Shown here: one piece after another, positions 2,627-26,621 of the stretch
How positions within the stretch are numbered: position 1 is the first letter of the stretch
How the letters are laid out: the number at the start of each line of letters is the position of its first letter
NCBI GenBank assembly: GCA_964402035.1
Contig: CAYOAM010000003.1
Coordinates: 86,480 to 150,479, forward strand
Direction: 5' to 3'
DNA length: 64,000 nt
From: an uncultured Candidatus Saccharibacteria bacterium
Lineage (GTDB): Bacteria > Patescibacteriota > Minisyncoccia > Phycocordibacterales > UBA918
The notes under the pieces: model-generated
Told to the model about the DNA's origin: nothing
Seen by the model: the letters and a program-made list of their open reading frames with translations, nothing else
Database searches by the model: none
Position numbers and translations under genes: made by a program

Positions 2627-3835
2627 CTAGATTCCCGAAGCAATATTGTAGATTGGCATCAAGATAGCGGAAAGGAGGATGCCGACACCGACACCGAGCG
2701 CTACAATCATGGCTGGCTCGATGAGGTTGATGACGGTATCAACGGCGTTGTTGACCTCACGACGATAGAACTTTGCCAAAGTCTCCAAAATCTTTGAAAG
2801 ATTGCCCGTCTCCTCACCCACCTTGATCATCTGCGACATCACGCCAGGGATTTCGGGAAATTCTCCGAAAGAATCAGATACTGACTTTCCCGCCTTCACA
2901 TCAGCAATCACATCTTCAAGCATGCTTCGATACACTTTGTTGCCAACAAGATCTGCCGTAATCTCAAGTGTTTGCACCATGGAAAGCCCACTCGCAAGGA
3001 GCGTTGAGAACGTGTCCGCTATGCGCGAAAGATAGAGTTTGGTGAAGAGATCTCCAATGTATGGCACCGATAACTTGAGTTCGTCGAGTGCTCGCGCACC
3101 CACCTCCGTGCGCACAAAGCGCCACAGCATCACGGCTCCGATACCTAAGAAAATAAGAATGAATACGATGTAACTGGTGAGAAAATGTGAGAGACCAATG
3201 ATTAATTTCGTGAATAACGGCAATTCCTGACTTGTACCTTCAATAATTTCCGCCAGGCGCGGGATCACCATCGTAAGCATCAGCACCATCACCGTAACAA
3301 AGGTAAAAATCACAAAGGCAGGATAGATGAGTGCGTTGCGTGCCTTGCTCATGACCTCGTACGTTCGGTCGAGGTTGTCTGCAAGCTGCATAAAGACTTG
3401 ATCAAGACGGCCCGACTCCTCACCGGCGCGCACCATGTTGACATAGAAAGATGAAAATGTGTCTGGGTGGCGATTGAGTGCTTTTGAAATGGTGCTTCCC
3501 CCTTGGATATCGTCCGCCACTTCGGTCAAGATACGCTGCAGCATGGGGTTTTCAGCTTCTGACGAGAGGAGACGAAATACGCGGAGCGCAGACACTTGTG
3601 CTTCAAAGAGGGTTGCTATTTGGCGTGAAAAAATAACAATTTCCTTGTTTGAAATGTGTTCGAGAAAGGTGAATTGGATATTTAAAATACCTGTTTTCTC
3701 TGCAAGAGGGTCGATGGCCGTTACGGTGTAGCCACGACGCTGGAGTGAACTGATGGCTACATCAATATTTGAGGCATCGATAGTGCCTTCACGCTTGCTT
3801 CCTTCCTTATCTAGTGCTTTGTAACTAAAAAGCAT
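2627..3835 (-). CDS. pilC: Type IV pilus inner-membrane platform protein (GspF family)
   Basis: 402 aa with a duplicated GspF-like domain architecture and 3-4 TM segments. Confidence 0.9.
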   Translation of the reverse strand: MLFSYKALDKEGSKREGTIDASNIDVAISSLQRRGYTVTAIDPLAEKTGILNIQFTFLEHISNKEIVIFSRQIATLFEAQVSALRVFRLLSSEAENPMLQRILTEVADDIQGGSTISKALNRHPDTFSSFYVNMVRAGEESGRLDQVFMQLADNLDRTYEVMSKARNALIYPAFVIFTFVTVMVLMLTMVIPRLAEIIEGTSQELPLFTKLIIGLSHFLTSYIVFILIFLGIGAVMLWRFVRTEVGARALDELKLSVPYIGDLFTKLYLSRIADTFSTLLASGLSMVQTLEITADLVGNKVYRSMLEDVIADVKAGKSVSDSFGEFPEIPGVMSQMIKVGEETGNLSKILETLAKFYRREVNNAVDTVINLIEPAMIVALGVGVGILLSAILMPIYNIASGI

Positions 3836-8969: not shown

Positions 8970-10076
8970 TTAGCGTTCAGAAAGTCGTCGGAGCGCAGCA
9001 CCAACAGCAACAGCAAACGAGGGTCCGATTGTTTTTAAGGTATCTTGAAGAAATGCAGGATATTCAACTTTTGCAAAGGGATCGGCATTAAGAATCCGAC
9101 GACCGAGTACATTTTGTGCATACTCCGCAACGCCCGCGAGCGTTGCTCCACCACCTGAAAGCATCACGGACGACACTGGTACGGCTCCGTTGGTACGCTC
9201 GTATGCCTCAAGCAAGCGTCGAGACTCGATAAACATACGTTCGAGCGGCAAACTGAGCGCACGCTCAATCCGCGGATTCTCATGCGCCAAAAGTCCCACT
9301 TGACGCTTCATTTCTTCAGCATCAGATATAGTGAGTTCGAGAGACTTTGAAAGAGCCGACGTGAGATCTTGTCCACCCACTGTAATACTGTGTGTTGCCT
9401 GCACAATACCTCCGGCCACGACATAGAGTTTTGTTGTTGCGGCACCGATGTCCATAATAAGTATGGTCTCATCAATCTTTTGCACGCTCGAACGGATGGT
9501 ACTAAAGACTTCTATTTCGTTAAAACTCGAAAGCATCCCCGCCCCCTCGATCACCGTCTTAAATTTGCTCAGCGCTTCATTGTGAATAGCGGCCAAGAGT
9601 ACACGAGTTGTTGTCACTCGCCCCGCTGATTCAGCCCCATTTTTATTAGGCACCACAAACCAATCGAGCGTCACCTGCGAGACGGGCACTGGCACATATT
9701 TGCGGGCTTCAATCGGTATCATCGCCTCAAGGAGTGCCGGATCCTCAACCTGGAGTGAAATCACCGTCACGAAACTTGCAGCATACGGGACCGCAACACC
9801 AACGTTGCGGCTTGTGACAGATGCTTCTCGTACAATATCCAACAGCGCCTCCGTTGTTTTTCCCGGCTCAAGATTGGTGGCACGACCGACGTCCACGTTT
9901 GCATACGGCCCAAGCTGCAGTTCTCCATACGTCTCCAAAACCGCTCGCTGATGCTCGCGACGTAGTTGCACAATCTTTATAGAAGAAGAACCAAAATCAA
10001 TACCAACGACACTACCGCCATGCGCAGGCGCGGCGGCATTAAATAATTTACCGAGTGACTTAAAAGACAGATCCAT
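8970..10076 (-). CDS. pilM: Type IV pilus assembly protein PilM (actin-like ATPase fold)
   Basis: 368 aa with N-terminal GIDFGSSSIKIVQL and the PilM/FtsA-like fold signature. First gene of the operon. Confidence 0.85.
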   Translation of the reverse strand: MDLSFKSLGKLFNAAAPAHGGSVVGIDFGSSSIKIVQLRREHQRAVLETYGELQLGPYANVDVGRATNLEPGKTTEALLDIVREASVTSRNVGVAVPYAASFVTVISLQVEDPALLEAMIPIEARKYVPVPVSQVTLDWFVVPNKNGAESAGRVTTTRVLLAAIHNEALSKFKTVIEGAGMLSSFNEIEVFSTIRSSVQKIDETILIMDIGAATTKLYVVAGGIVQATHSITVGGQDLTSALSKSLELTISDAEEMKRQVGLLAHENPRIERALSLPLERMFIESRRLLEAYERTNGAVPVSSVMLSGGGATLAGVAEYAQNVLGRRILNADPFAKVEYPAFLQDTLKTIGPSFAVAVGAALRRLSER

Positions 10077-11433: not shown

Positions 11434-12063
11434 ATGTGTCTTAATCACCTCACCTACACTATGCTTACTCAAAAAAGAAATGCGGCGATCGTGGCTATCA
11501 GTTGTGTTATTGGCGTTGCTACCGCACTTTTCTTTTATTTTGAAAAAGCCGAAGCGCCAGCCATTGTCACTGACGTACCAGGAGCGGAGACAATAAACCA
11601 AGAGACCAAGGAAACTGCCACCACGACCGACAACAATCAAACAACCACACCAACCGAGACTAAAGGTGTCGAGCCTACAACACCTAAAACAACTAGTGCC
11701 ACATCAAAACCAGTGGCCAAACCGGCACCCGCTCCGACATCGAAAGTTGTATATAGCGCTGTGGTTAGCTATACGGATAAAGGATTCAAACCGTTTCGCG
11801 TCACGATAGAACCCGGCCAGACAGTACGATTTCTCAATCAATCGAGTCGCGAGATGTGGGTTGCTTCTAATATTCACCCCACACACTCCAACTACCTGAT
11901 TAAAGGCTCCAACGACTGTCTTGGGAGCAGCTTTGATCAGTGCAAGGCCGTCGGCAAAGGCGAATACTGGGACTTCAAATTTGATCCCGTCGGCTCTTGG
12001 GATTTCCACAATCACATGCGACCGACCGACGATGGTACTATCTACGTTGTGAAGCCTCGTTAA
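11434..12063 (+). CDS. Membrane-anchored protein with Thr/Pro-rich linker and C-terminal cupredoxin-like domain
   Basis: N-terminal TM helix, TTTPTETKGVEPTTPKTTSATSKP linker, then FKPFRVTIEPGQTVRFLNQSS...IHPTHS...DFHNHM, which resembles EfeO-type cupredoxin domains. Confidence 0.5.
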   Translation: MCLNHLTYTMLTQKRNAAIVAISCVIGVATALFFYFEKAEAPAIVTDVPGAETINQETKETATTTDNNQTTTPTETKGVEPTTPKTTSATSKPVAKPAPAPTSKVVYSAVVSYTDKGFKPFRVTIEPGQTVRFLNQSSREMWVASNIHPTHSNYLIKGSNDCLGSSFDQCKAVGKGEYWDFKFDPVGSWDFHNHMRPTDDGTIYVVKPR

Positions 12064-16878: not shown

Positions 16879-16952
16879 CCGTCCTTAGCTCAGTTGGTTA
16901 GAGCATTCCGCTTATACCGGAAGGGTCCCTGGTTCGAGTCCAGGAGGACGGA
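16879..16952 (+). tRNA. tRNA-Ile with anticodon UAU (decodes AUA)
   Basis: Acceptor CCGTCCT/AGGACGG, D-arm GCTC-AGTTGGTTA-GAGC, anticodon stem TTCCG/CGGAA with loop CTTATAC (U33, anticodon TAT, A37), T-arm CCTGG-TTCGAGT-CCAGG, discriminator A. Confidence 0.75.
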
Positions 16953-16961
16953 CAAGATCAG

Positions 16962-24272: not shown

Positions 24273-24404
24273 AGTGGGGTCATTATACAGAAAATGAACA
24301 TAAATGCGAGCAAAATCAATAGTGACAAACACCGTCCAAGGTTTCCAAGGTCCAGCCTTGGAATCCGCCTATGACCCTTTGCACAAAAATGAGGTATAGT
24401 TTTA

Positions 24405-24866
24405 GTGTCTATGAACAAACCGATCTACCACAGCCGCGCACGGTACGACTATGAAATCCTTGAGACTTTTGAGGCTGGGATGGTGCTGTCTGGCCAGGAA
24501 GTGAAGTCTGTTCGCACGGGCAAAATAAAGCTTGAGGGGGGCTTTGTCATCGTGCGTGGCGGCGAGGCATTTTTGGTCGGTGTGTCTATCCATCCCTATC
24601 AGCCGGGCAATACGCCAAAAGAGTATGAACCCGACCACGCACGAAAGCTCCTTTTGACCAAAAAACAGCTAGAAACCTTATCTGCGCAGGGTGAAAAGAA
24701 AGGATTGACAATAGTGCCACTTATGGTGTATAATAAAGGGCGGAATTTGAAGATCCAGGTAGGTGTTGCGCGCGGCAAAAAGGAGTATGACAAGCGCGAA
24801 AGGACCAAGGAGCGCGAGACTGACCGTACGATCGAACGCACCATCAAACGCAGTATCGGGAGGTAG
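24405..24866 (+). CDS. smpB: SsrA-binding protein SmpB
   Basis: 153 aa with KKQLETL, GLTIVPLMVYNKGRNLKIQVGVARGKKEYDKRE and a basic C-terminal tail. Confidence 0.9.
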   Translation: MSMNKPIYHSRARYDYEILETFEAGMVLSGQEVKSVRTGKIKLEGGFVIVRGGEAFLVGVSIHPYQPGNTPKEYEPDHARKLLLTKKQLETLSAQGEKKGLTIVPLMVYNKGRNLKIQVGVARGKKEYDKRERTKERETDRTIERTIKRSIGR

Positions 24867-24988
24867 AAAGCTTCCCCACTCCACAACGTCTATACTAGTA
24901 TTGCGTTCTTTGAAAACTCAAAAGCAAAAACTCTACTGACTTAGAGTCAGTCGTTCCGCTTGAGCATGTTTACGAAAGTATGCTTCAG

Positions 24989-25391
24989 GGGGATGATCGG
25001 CTTAGACGGTTAGTGAGTATGTATGTGTGCAGTGTGAGAGCCTCTCGAATCTCTCTAAAAAATCGAGAAAATTCACGTGCTAAAACTGCTGTGAAATCTC
25101 CATACTTTAGCGGTATGGAGCTCGCCTACGCCTAAGCGTTTACGCTTTTCGCGTCGCGACGCGGACATGTCTGACACCCACTACGGCGTGTTCGTGTCAT
25201 ATTAGTTGGGTTATAAGGTACTACGTCGTTTCAGTGCACCTTGAATCAAAGAAACTCGGCACATAGTGATTTCGCTTACTTCAAACACTATGGACTTAAA
25301 TCTTCTTCGGAGGAATGAAAGTATCCTAGACACCGTAGATGCACATACATCCACTTCCTCGGACGGGGGTTCGACTCCTCCCATCTCCACA
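24989..25391 (+). ncRNA. ssrA: tmRNA (SsrA)
   Basis: 5' GGGGATGATCGGCTTAGACGG and 3' GGACGGGGGTTCGACTCCTCCCATCTCCACA match the tmRNA tRNA-like domain. Acceptor GGGGATG/CATCTCC has a G3:U70 pair and discriminator A. Internal frame GCT AAA ACT GCT GTG ... GAG CTC GCC TAC GCC TAA is tag-like. Directly downstream of smpB. Confidence 0.75.
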
Positions 25392-25402
25392 GATAACGCA
25401 AT

Positions 25403-25423
25403 CCGCCCTTTGGGCGGTTTTTG
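25403..25423 (+). terminator. Terminator after tmRNA
   Basis: CCGCCC-TTT-GGGCGG followed by TTTTTG. Confidence 0.6.
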
Positions 25424-25639
25424 CGTTCTGTGGAGTGGAGAAAGCAAATAGTTTTGCTTTCGTGAGGAGTCGAAAGTCGTAGCTAACTCACTTCCGCCTA
25501 TAAGCGGAAGTGAGTGCGAGACGTGGTCAAGAGCACTTAGTACACATGCGGAGCATGTTACTTAGTGACTCGTGACCGACACCGCCGTCCAAGAATCTTA
25601 GTGCAATCAAACGTAGTATTGATGTGCACTTAGAATTCT

Positions 25640-25700
25640 GGGGATCACTCCTCCCATCTCCACAAAATGAAAACCGCCTTCGGGCGGATTTTCTATTTTG
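25640..25700 (+). repeat. Degenerate duplicate of tmRNA termini plus terminator
   Basis: GGGGAT-CACTCCTCCC-ATCTCCACA: the 5' 6 nt and 3' 19 nt of ssrA are fused, then CCGCC-TTCG-GGCGG and a T-run. Confidence 0.55.
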
Positions 25701-25713
25701 GGAATATGAAAAC

Positions 25714-26427
25714 ATGCTGGGAGTATGTTTGGTGAAGTTGCAAAATAATTGTTTATATGGCATAATAATGCCCGTTTTTGTTCCAACCCAAACATTGAGG
25801 TTTGCCGTGGATATTTCATCTATCTTTAGACATGGGAGCGGCTGTACTCCCATCAACCCCTGTATATCCTGTCAGGGCGTAGCGTTCCTTAGACGTGAAC
25901 TTGGGGAAGCAAAATTCTCTGAATTCGTGAATATATTCTCGTGCGCGACAGAAGAGACTCGACCGCCAGCTGCGCCAGATTTTTCACTTGCAACATCTGT
26001 CCATGCTCTCGGACTTAAAAGGAGAACACTCAATTGTCTTGTGGGCCACGGTGTACGCACGGTCAGTGACATACTTCCTCTGTCAGCGGCGCAATTGCTG
26101 CGTATCCCCGGCATGGGCCAGGTCTCCCTAGAAGATTTGGAGATGCAGCTACAGAGTCGGGGGTTGCGTATCGTTGAATTCTCTATTCCACAAACCTCAT
26201 TGGATACAGAAATCTCGCAGCTGGATTTTGATCAGATGGCACATGGCTCAAGTGTGACACAGTACCTCAATAAATCGGGAGTAATGACCCTTGGAGATCT
26301 GCAAAGAAAGACTAGGGGGGAGCTGCTGCTAATACCTGGTATTGGCCCTGCCGCCATAAAAAAAATAGAACAAAGACTAAGGGAAAGAAACTTAAGTCTA
26401 AGGAAGTTTACGCACCAAAGACCGTAG
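25714..26427 (+). CDS. Protein with two tandem RNA polymerase alpha-subunit C-terminal-domain-like (helix-hairpin-helix) repeats
   Basis: SVHALGLKRRTLNCLVGHGVRTVSDILPLSAAQLLRIPGMGQVSLEDLEMQLQSRGL and VTQYLNKSGVMTLGDLQRKTRGELLLIPGIGPAAIKKIEQRLRERNLSL both resemble the RpoA C-terminal DNA-binding domain. Start uncertain: the ORF opens at 25624, and the first Met after the upstream terminator was chosen. Confidence 0.5.
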   Translation: MLGVCLVKLQNNCLYGIIMPVFVPTQTLRFAVDISSIFRHGSGCTPINPCISCQGVAFLRRELGEAKFSEFVNIFSCATEETRPPAAPDFSLATSVHALGLKRRTLNCLVGHGVRTVSDILPLSAAQLLRIPGMGQVSLEDLEMQLQSRGLRIVEFSIPQTSLDTEISQLDFDQMAHGSSVTQYLNKSGVMTLGDLQRKTRGELLLIPGIGPAAIKKIEQRLRERNLSLRKFTHQRP

Positions 26428-26621
26428 CGGCTTACCCACAGAGGATATCGGCAAACATTTGCAGTCTCTCCTCCGGCAACAACGCCTTGGTCCAGAAGTA
26501 TAGAACTTCACGCATCACGTGTGTGAAGTGTTTTTATTTTGGATGTAATTTTGTATGTATGTAACAAATTTGCCATTTGCAACGTCATATAGAATGGACA
26601 ACTGATCTTTGAGGGGAAATC

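Follow-up and report, generated by a model that had tools for sequence, protein, structure and literature searches.

A stretch of 64,000 nucleotides from an uncultured Candidatus Saccharibacteria bacterium (GenBank assembly GCA_964402035.1, contig CAYOAM010000003.1), which we call the window and to which all coordinates below refer unless another locus is named, carries smpB, the gene for the SsrA-binding protein, and behind it on the same strand ssrA, the gene for transfer-messenger RNA (tmRNA). Behind ssrA comes its own ending a second time. The last 18 nt of the gene, ACTCCTCCCATCTCCACA, are present twice, exactly and in the same orientation, the second copy (fragment F) lying beyond a gene-less spacer of 255 bp (25392–25646). 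The gene in front is in good order: the Rfam tmRNA model RF00023 matches it over its full length (model positions 1–374; 84.8 bits, E 1.9e-31); its tag frame, AKTAVKSPYFSGMELAYA-stop at 25079–25135, is intact; and its 3' terminus reads ...GGGGGTTCGACTCCTCCCATCTCCACA. Here we ask one question of this small piece of DNA: what put a second tmRNA ending there, and what is the structured sequence that separates it from the first?

That the two endings belong together is hardly in doubt. When up to three mismatches are allowed, the 64 kb hold these two matches to the 18-nt core and no others (0.01 would be expected by chance), and two matches were found in none of 100 shuffles. The core repeat begins at T-loop position 5 (TTCG/ACT), and similarity between the copies extends beyond it, in BLAST at 81% over 57 nt, terminator included, and in a MAFFT alignment over about 85 nt, past the terminator of each. 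An earlier reading of this DNA from its letters alone (the preliminary description) had noted an intact smpB–ssrA pair, a downstream copy of the ssrA 3' end and a second terminator homologous to that of the tmRNA; all of this stands, the similarity running through both terminators, as does its reading of 25640–25664 as GGGGATCACTCCTCCCATCTCCACA. It had also raised the possibility of a faulty assembly. An assembly artefact is unlikely, because over 24301–26500 the window is matched at 100% identity by two public assemblies, one a 461.7-kb contig in ENA (ERZ3430527) and the other Logan SRR7369912. What the locus shares with an element integrated in a tmRNA gene is a target that is intact at one boundary and whose 3' end recurs, in the same orientation, at the other; an integrase gene inside the 255-bp segment so bounded, which such an element should have, is missing.

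The segment is made of modules, which over 25392–25743 follow one another in the order T1, A1, X, H1, H2, fragment F, T2 and a degenerate A2 (Table 1). Together, the ssrA 3' end, the first terminator (T1) and module A1 make up a long quasi-palindrome (−68.6 kcal/mol, z −8.8), of which T1 is the tip. A1 is the ssrA 3' end in antisense, with something put into it: the reverse complement of the acceptor 3' strand, TGTGGAGTGGAG, is followed by a small hairpin, "a" (25441–25460), by CGT and then by the reverse complement of the T-loop and T-stem, GAGGAGTCGAA (25464–25474), which is antisense to TTCGACTCCTC of ssrA. A strict complement scan recovers A1 as well, and a covariance model built from the A modules of relatives only finds it at 25427–25476 (51 bits, E 1.9e-10) as the sole significant match in the 64 kb. 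Two spacer hairpins that the preliminary description had named do exist, one being hairpin X and the other the upper stem of H1. Compensatory changes affect 7 of 22 pairs in H1 and 7 of 19 in H2, where CGUCC pairs with GGGAY; the window, L041, L050 and L051 have one 16-mer, TTAGTGACTCGTGACC, in common without a difference (L-numbers denote the other loci compared). A2 contains a hairpin, AACATGCTGGGAGTATGTT (25711–25729), almost identical to hairpin "a" of the L051 A1; the A-module covariance model R1, run over a stretch of 251 nt, gives A2 14.4 bits (E 9e-4). The sequence from A1 to F folds into a multibranch structure, which A1 closes by pairing with F; its energy is −109.4 kcal/mol (z −9.8) for the + strand and −112.5 kcal/mol (z −12.1) for the − strand. 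Even at a permissive threshold (E ≤ 10), Rfam finds nothing over 25340–25820 but the ssrA 3' end. A likeness of H1 and H2 strands (TTAGTG ... CACTT) to the tmRNA P2 helix was set aside as too short to test. Several H1 and H2 hairpins with differing stems have the loop motif GAATACTTGRA in common (L041 at 5677 and 5833, L046 at 5433, L050 at about 2410), and the window's loops differ from it (GGA in H1, ACGTAGTA in H2); the sharing suggests that this loop may be conserved and recognized by something.

Table 1. The ssrA locus of the window and the loci of relatives at which the same modules stand behind ssrA
Feature	Position or accession	Strand	Remarks
smpB (SsrA-binding protein, 151 aa)	24411–24866	+	Open reading frame and translation
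Degenerate ssrA-3'-end-like fragment TTCCCCACTCCACA, between smpB and ssrA	24872–24885	+	Status uncertain; seen after the fact
ssrA, one-piece tmRNA, intact, CCA not encoded	24989–25392	+	Rfam RF00023
Core copy 1, ssrA 3' end	25374–25391	+	
Terminator T1, CCGCCC-TTT-GGGCGG + TTTTT	25403–25422	+	Detected as CCGCCCTTTGGGCGG + T-run at 25403–25417
Module A1, antisense ssrA 3' end split by small hairpin	25427–25476	+	
Hairpin X (ACTCACTTCCGCCTA / TAAGCGGAAGTGAGT)	25486–25515	+	93% complementary; in minimum-energy fold
Hairpin H1, conserved lower stem (GGTCAAGAGCACTTAG ... CTTAGTGACTCGTGACC), variable upper stem	25525–25577	+	Five copies, four genomes
Hairpin H2 (CGTCCAAGAATCTTAGTG ... CACTTAGAATTCTGGGGA), holds GGGGA	25586–25644	+	Four copies, four genomes
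Core copy 2 = fragment F, displaced ssrA 3' end copy	25647–25664	+	Analogous fragments in L041, L047, L051
Terminator T2, CCGCC-TTCG-GGCGG + T-run	25674–25697	+	Homologous to T1; detected as CCGCCTTCGGGCGG + T-run at 25674–25687
Module A2, degenerate	25697–25743	+	Alignment; less certain than A1
219-aa protein, RNA polymerase alpha C-terminal domain-like repeats	25768–26427	+	Gene call, translation; context, outside element
L041	GCA_021733405.1		Two to three units after ssrA
L046	Logan SRR27712898		One to two units after ssrA
L050	JGI Ga0654430_0007338		Two to three units after ssrA
L051	GCA_039740955.1		ssrA-T1-A-X-H1-F-T2-A2; 17-nt exact repeat
L003	JAIPIA010000002.1		A plus hairpins
L047	Logan ERR14949496		One unit, beyond island

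The window is not alone. Its SmpB retrieved 4339 homologues, the nearest 73% identical, and SmpB homology puts the organism among the ultra-small Patescibacteria. Through homologues 47–73% identical we fetched the ssrA loci of relatives, among which six other Patescibacteria contigs have the same modules behind ssrA, in one to three copies and in differing order. The window and L051 each hold one unit and a partial second one, the 17-bp repeat of L051 beginning at the last T-loop base. In L044 and L001, ssrA stands without modules (L044 keeps a trailer), and none is found in the 156 nt that the L040 contig holds after ssrA; these three are distant loci, with SmpB 57–72% identical and flanks that cannot be aligned with the window. 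Between the same pairs of genomes, identity of the modules (57–87%) tracks that of the tmRNA (64–85%), and because it does, the modules look constrained rather than like decaying junk. Thus, the "largely decayed" element of the preliminary description was right in one respect, as integrase and cargo are both absent, and wrong in another, as the 255-bp insert consists of modules whose conservation across genomes is about that of the tmRNA. Neither in the window nor at the fetched loci do the modules stand anywhere but at ssrA, which is not what dispersed palindromic repeats (like repetitive extragenic palindromes or miniature inverted-repeat transposable elements) would do, and we rejected that candidate. 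Hairpin "a" comes in two types, AAAGCA...TGCTTT and AACATGC...GYATGTT, whose order in A1 and A2 is opposite between the window and L051; this fits an independent order of insertion and argues against one inherited duplication. Module A, for its part, mirrors each genome's own ssrA end, down to the TCCAATT T-loop of L047 and the ...CCATG end of L050.

One of these relatives shows what such an arrangement looks like with an island in it. In L047, ssrA (2719–3110) is followed on the opposite strand by a gene for a 563-aa large serine recombinase, whose 3' end overlaps the 3' end of ssrA, and then by cargo genes; 6.3 kb from ssrA, at 9304–9443 of that contig, come module A, two hairpins and a fragment, CCCCCCATCTCCACA, with module A just upstream of the fragment as in the window. 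Beyond CCCCCCATCTCCACA comes a trailer with two hairpins and a terminator, whose homologue in L041 and L044 stands immediately behind their intact ssrA; what stands immediately behind ssrA in L047 itself is unrelated to this trailer. For these reasons, we take the fragment and trailer of L047 to have once been contiguous with ssrA and to have been pushed off by an insertion. L052 has the same recombinase-on-ssrA arrangement, with a recombinase 80% identical to that of L047 and smpB adjacent, and L038 has it with a different recombinase. All three proteins are about 560 aa long, are encoded on the reverse strand and carry the Pfam domains Resolvase, Recombinase and Zn_ribbon_recom; the family has more than 1,250 homologues at E ≤ 1e-30, several of them labeled Patescibacteria, Parcubacteria or Nomurabacteria. 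Their reading frames extend 14–44 codons into antisense ssrA (L038 1087–1128, L047 2977–3110, L052 11556–11689), so that, in the integrated state, the complement of the tmRNA gene encodes the C-terminal tail of the recombinase, a tail that excision would alter. We considered module A as an inverted half-site for such a recombinase and rejected the idea, A lying 140–200 nt from the crossover. A further large serine recombinase gene, 74% identical to that of L047, is found in L053 (GCA_964416985.1, CAYQFS010000002.1), and its 3' end abuts a 73-nt tRNA-like sequence, GGGGATGCC...GCGGGTTCGACTCCCGTCATCTCCACA (11557–11629, minus strand), which has a tmRNA-type acceptor stem, G3:U70 included, and a T-arm and is without an mRNA-like part. 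Rfam finds no full tmRNA and ARAGORN no tRNA at that site, and smpB is not adjacent; the 73-nt sequence may be a target, or a mimic, that is made up of the tRNA-like domain alone.

How, then, should the window be read? Its order is that of L047 minus the cargo (ssrA core, T1, A, hairpins, displaced core, T2), and for this reason, we read 25392–25646, with a little better than even confidence, as a cargo-less remnant or non-autonomous derivative of an integrative element that targets ssrA, held between a regenerated and a displaced ssrA end. Insertion at the ssrA 3' end was one of two options in the preliminary description, and the signature of regenerated target plus displaced fragment supports it. 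That is, a 255-bp noncoding insert would have entered ssrA at the T-loop/3'-end sublocation by site-specific recombination and would have brought with it an ssrA 3' core and a terminator, T1, of its own, so that insertion restored an intact tmRNA gene, which still has proper termination. The earlier core, with the earlier terminator, T2, would have been displaced 273 bp downstream, 25647–25664 being the original ssrA 3' end. Having neither recombinase nor cargo, the insert would be either a non-autonomous derivative or what a deletion left over. On this account, the window's copy was presumably made by recombination rather than by local duplication, a large serine recombinase acting in trans was presumably responsible, and fragment F itself probably makes no functional RNA. 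Copy number that varies among genomes from none to three also counts for insertion. The arrangement suggests that at least two units accreted in tandem, and since T2 itself precedes the degenerate A2, an older and further decayed unit probably lies downstream.

A good deal weighs against a remnant of an integrated element, and we gather it here. Module identity that tracks tmRNA identity gives the units an old, constrained and vertically inherited look, not that of recent mobility. The island of L052, despite its closely similar recombinase, has no module A at its far end; A may thus not belong to the recombinase islands at all, and in L047 the island may have come later, inserted into a unit already in place. 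In L041, a native-type trailer follows the intact ssrA and the array follows the trailer, which a simple model does not predict. The homology of T1 with T2 and of A1 with A2 goes beyond the core, as would also be expected from tandem duplication. The agreement of A with the ssrA end of its own genome speaks for concerted evolution, for a local origin (template switching at the terminator palindrome) or for selection for pairing. Searching the 64-kb window by tblastn with the recombinases of relatives, we found no large serine recombinase, the only result being an artefact of frames that run into antisense ssrA. No empty site was found in a close relative, the nearest SmpB being 73% identical, and neither the core nor the modules turned up in excised or phage-borne form in IMG/VR, the JGI metagenomes or the GenBank phages. 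The single IMG/VR match to the 18-nt core lies inside a phage coding sequence with flanks that do not match, and its 31 matches in the JGI metagenomes are all chance, none standing beside a T-arm, with no attP-bearing element among them. The insert motif CTTAGTGACTCGTGACCGA had no match in IMG/VR, the motif GGTCRAGAGCACTTAG had eight, all by chance in coding sequence without a hairpin, and the A-module pattern had none; blastn of the insert against the GenBank phages matched the terminator alone (in Escherichia coli phages). Against IMG/VR, the recombinases of relatives found either nothing or distant high-GC relatives without ssrA-like sequence (L048, L049).

Much of this would be natural if no mobile element had ever been involved and the locus had built the structure itself, a quasi-palindrome of ssrA 3' core, terminator and antisense A growing by template switching at the terminator hairpin, with later tandem duplication through slippage or unequal crossing-over. 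Behind every core, whether ssrA or fragment, there is indeed a terminator followed by A, the palindrome stays unbroken from the loop of the terminator, across the trailer, to within the ssrA 3' end, and the restriction of modules to ssrA, their shared pace with the tmRNA and the faithfulness of A to its own genome (L047, L050) all fit. We nevertheless think such an origin unlikely, as in L047, a real insertion parts ssrA from A, fragment and native trailer, L044 and L001 lack the modules altogether and L040 shows none in its 156 nt after ssrA, the types of hairpin "a" are swapped between the window and L051, and A, with its conserved inserted hairpin and CGT linker, is no plain mirror copy; equally unlikely, to our minds, is the companion idea that the structure has been retained for ssrA expression, for example as a strong bidirectional terminator, an insulator or a processing stem. 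Might the unit instead be read out? A transcribed structured RNA of about 270 nt, from A1 to T2 (roughly 25427–25697), might act on the tmRNA 3' end or on SmpB, as an antisense or a decoy, the 5' part of A pairing in the modeled fold with the fragment in an acceptor-like stem, with A3-U70 replacing G3:U70, that would enclose four hairpins; this would be compatible with an insertional origin. The very stable folds (that of the window and, at −74.6 kcal/mol and z −10.4, that of the L047 unit), the compensatory changes in H1 and H2, the ending of the unit at a terminator and conservation about equal to that of the tmRNA all speak for an RNA, and the + strand, with more G-U pairs, is slightly more stable in 14 of 19 comparisons, a hint and not a decisive one. 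Yet the − strand folds about as well, as DNA palindromes would, no Rfam family matches, in the window the closing stem has flaws (5 of 7 for its acceptor-like part) and there is no promoter-like site between T1 and A1 in a scan that may not fit Patescibacteria promoters, so that we consider such an RNA very unlikely. A bolder thought is that the ssrA units are a new class of small noncoding ssrA-targeting cassettes in Patescibacteria, kept by selection rather than left as decaying scars and mobilized in trans by the large serine recombinases found at this site in relatives, in which the long imperfect hairpins (lower stems conserved, upper stems covarying) and the combination of ssrA 3' mimic, terminator and antisense A would act either as structured recombination sites, analogous to integron attC or the folded attP of the CTX phage, or as a transcribed tRNA-like or anti-tmRNA RNA; we regard it as decidedly unlikely.

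Two further accounts would make the second ending part of an RNA of a quite different kind. Group I introns in the tmRNA T-loop exist (Williams 2002, as cited in PMC13011429), and Patescibacteria are described there as rich in divergent group I introns. The window has several of the marks: the repeat begins in the T-loop, the insert is highly structured and some 250 nt long, the second part of A is exactly complementary to the exon junction TTCG/ACTCCTC, so that GAGGAGT-CGAA in A might serve as an internal guide pairing both exon ends, and a G precedes the fragments in L041, L046 and L050. In an intron, though, the first copy would not already be a complete tmRNA end with its terminator, and here it is; the window has C, not the terminal G, before its fragment; none of the intron families is matched, even at E ≤ 10; relatives have a degenerate downstream "exon," L046 and L050 having a fragment without the acceptor strand while the first copy is intact; and arrays of several units are not intron-like. 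An intron seems to us extremely unlikely, and no better placed is the truncated ssrA copy of the preliminary description, in which the first six and the last 19 nt of the tmRNA were fused into a tRNA-Ala-like minihelix, perhaps charged or processed. It is true that ssrA begins with GGGGAT, that these six bases and ATCTCC can form a helix with a G-U pair at position 3 and that L053 has, beside its recombinase gene, a 73-nt sequence made up of the tRNA-like domain only. But GGGGA(C/T) turns out to be the conserved 3' base of hairpin H2: L041, L046 and L050 have GGGGACG at the homologous position, paired at the base of H2 with a CGTCC that lies upstream, and the acceptor-like partner ATCTCC is altered in L041 and absent in L046 and L050. 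The minihelix (GGGGAU/AUCUCC, −5.7 kcal/mol) is no more stable than shuffled sequence (z = −0.25), 61 of 200 shuffles folding equally well. The second option of the preliminary description, an internally deleted second ssrA, fails too: the tmRNA model has no match at 25586–25664 even at E ≤ 10, and what lies upstream of fragment F is unlike the ssrA upstream region.

How much of this is new? Williams's "Traffic at the tmRNA gene" of 2003 is said to deal with islands at tmRNA genes, and the duplication itself is of a known kind, a textbook integration footprint that need surprise no one. In Hudson et al. (2015, PMC4383910), genomic islands that sit within genes for tRNA or tmRNA are described as leaving a regenerated target and a displaced 3' fragment. 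Like these Islander-type islands, the window has an intact ssrA with a same-orientation copy of its 3' end that starts in the T-loop region, an ssrA terminator supplied by the insert and tandem accretion; unlike them (they typically use tyrosine integrases), its segment has only 255 bp, no integrase or other gene and conserved hairpin modules, among them an antisense copy of the target. Nearer still are the ssrA-specific genomic islands of Dehalococcoides, with their large serine recombinase DsiB (McMurdie et al. 2011, PMC3146451), which match the Patescibacteria loci in a reverse-strand recombinase whose 3' end overlaps that of ssrA (L038, L047, L052), in a direct repeat of the ssrA end of about 11–20 bp (18 bp in the window) with its boundary in or at the T-loop and in tandem arrays with units that lack an integration module. 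The window differs in that no recombinase abuts its attL, an arrangement found in its relatives L038, L047 and L052. PMC3146451 reports no antisense module or hairpins (the terms "inverted repeat," "hairpin" and "terminator" are absent from its text). Conversely, we saw no second small recombinase, ParB or Mom module, and the Patescibacteria recombinases are likened to the DsiB type by their Pfam domains. Cis-mobilizable elements and staphylococcal cassette chromosome (SCC) remnants are att-flanked derivatives of integrative elements that have no recombination genes of their own. The concept is referred to in PMC3146451, and the window resembles them in its attL- and attR-like flanking repeats, the lack of a recombinase, the position of such units in tandem with or beside full elements and the possibility that they could be mobilized in trans; it differs in that they measure kilobases and its insert is far smaller and entirely noncoding, any mobility being hypothetical. 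The hairpin-rich mini-unit with its antisense copy of the target, along with the large serine recombinase islands at ssrA of Patescibacteria, appear to be undescribed variants, a literature search of limited coverage having turned up no description of either.

A few observations concern the surroundings. The fragment TTCCCCACTCCACA between smpB and ssrA is complementary at 13 of 14 nt to the 5' part of module A1 (25429–25442); TTGCGTTCTTTGAAAACTCAAAAGCAAA comes after it (within 24868–24930) and resembles 25421–25448, and 24868–24930 may be the relic of another unit upstream of ssrA. The smpB–ssrA gap of the window measures 122 nt and lacks the small open reading frame (52–84 aa, without a Pfam match) that occupies the gap in L039–L041, L046, L050 and L051. 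ARAGORN, run on the window, does not call the tmRNA despite its full-length Rfam score, and tmRNA genes of this clade may be under-annotated. A two-piece (permuted) tmRNA was ruled out, as the RF04321 score at 25365–25475, 10.1 bits (E 8.1), falls short of the gathering score of 47 and the standard one-piece model matches in full. Pfam finds PF01668 on the identical smpB gene, and PF03118 on the identical gene for the 219-aa protein, in L004 and L005; this protein has helix-hairpin-helix repeats without the N-terminal domain, and a hairpin at 25759–25772 overlaps the called start of its gene. ARAGORN also calls a tRNA-Ile with anticodon TAT (UAU) at 16879–16953, which is uncommon, AUA usually being read in bacteria by a modified CAU anticodon.

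What, finally, does a second tmRNA ending tell us about these bacteria? Islands directed to ssrA by large serine recombinases, until now described for Dehalococcoides, extend to Patescibacteria. The apparent scar is modular, highly structured and conserved: it recurs behind the ssrA of genomes with an SmpB only 47–68% identical to that of the window, a divergence that neutral remnants would not be expected to survive. Its antisense copy of the tmRNA 3' end, which tracks each genome's own sequence, and its persistently conserved hairpins are without a ready explanation. If the units can be mobilized, or if they are transcribed, they would offer a handle on mobile-element biology or on the control of trans-translation in organisms that have not yet been cultured.

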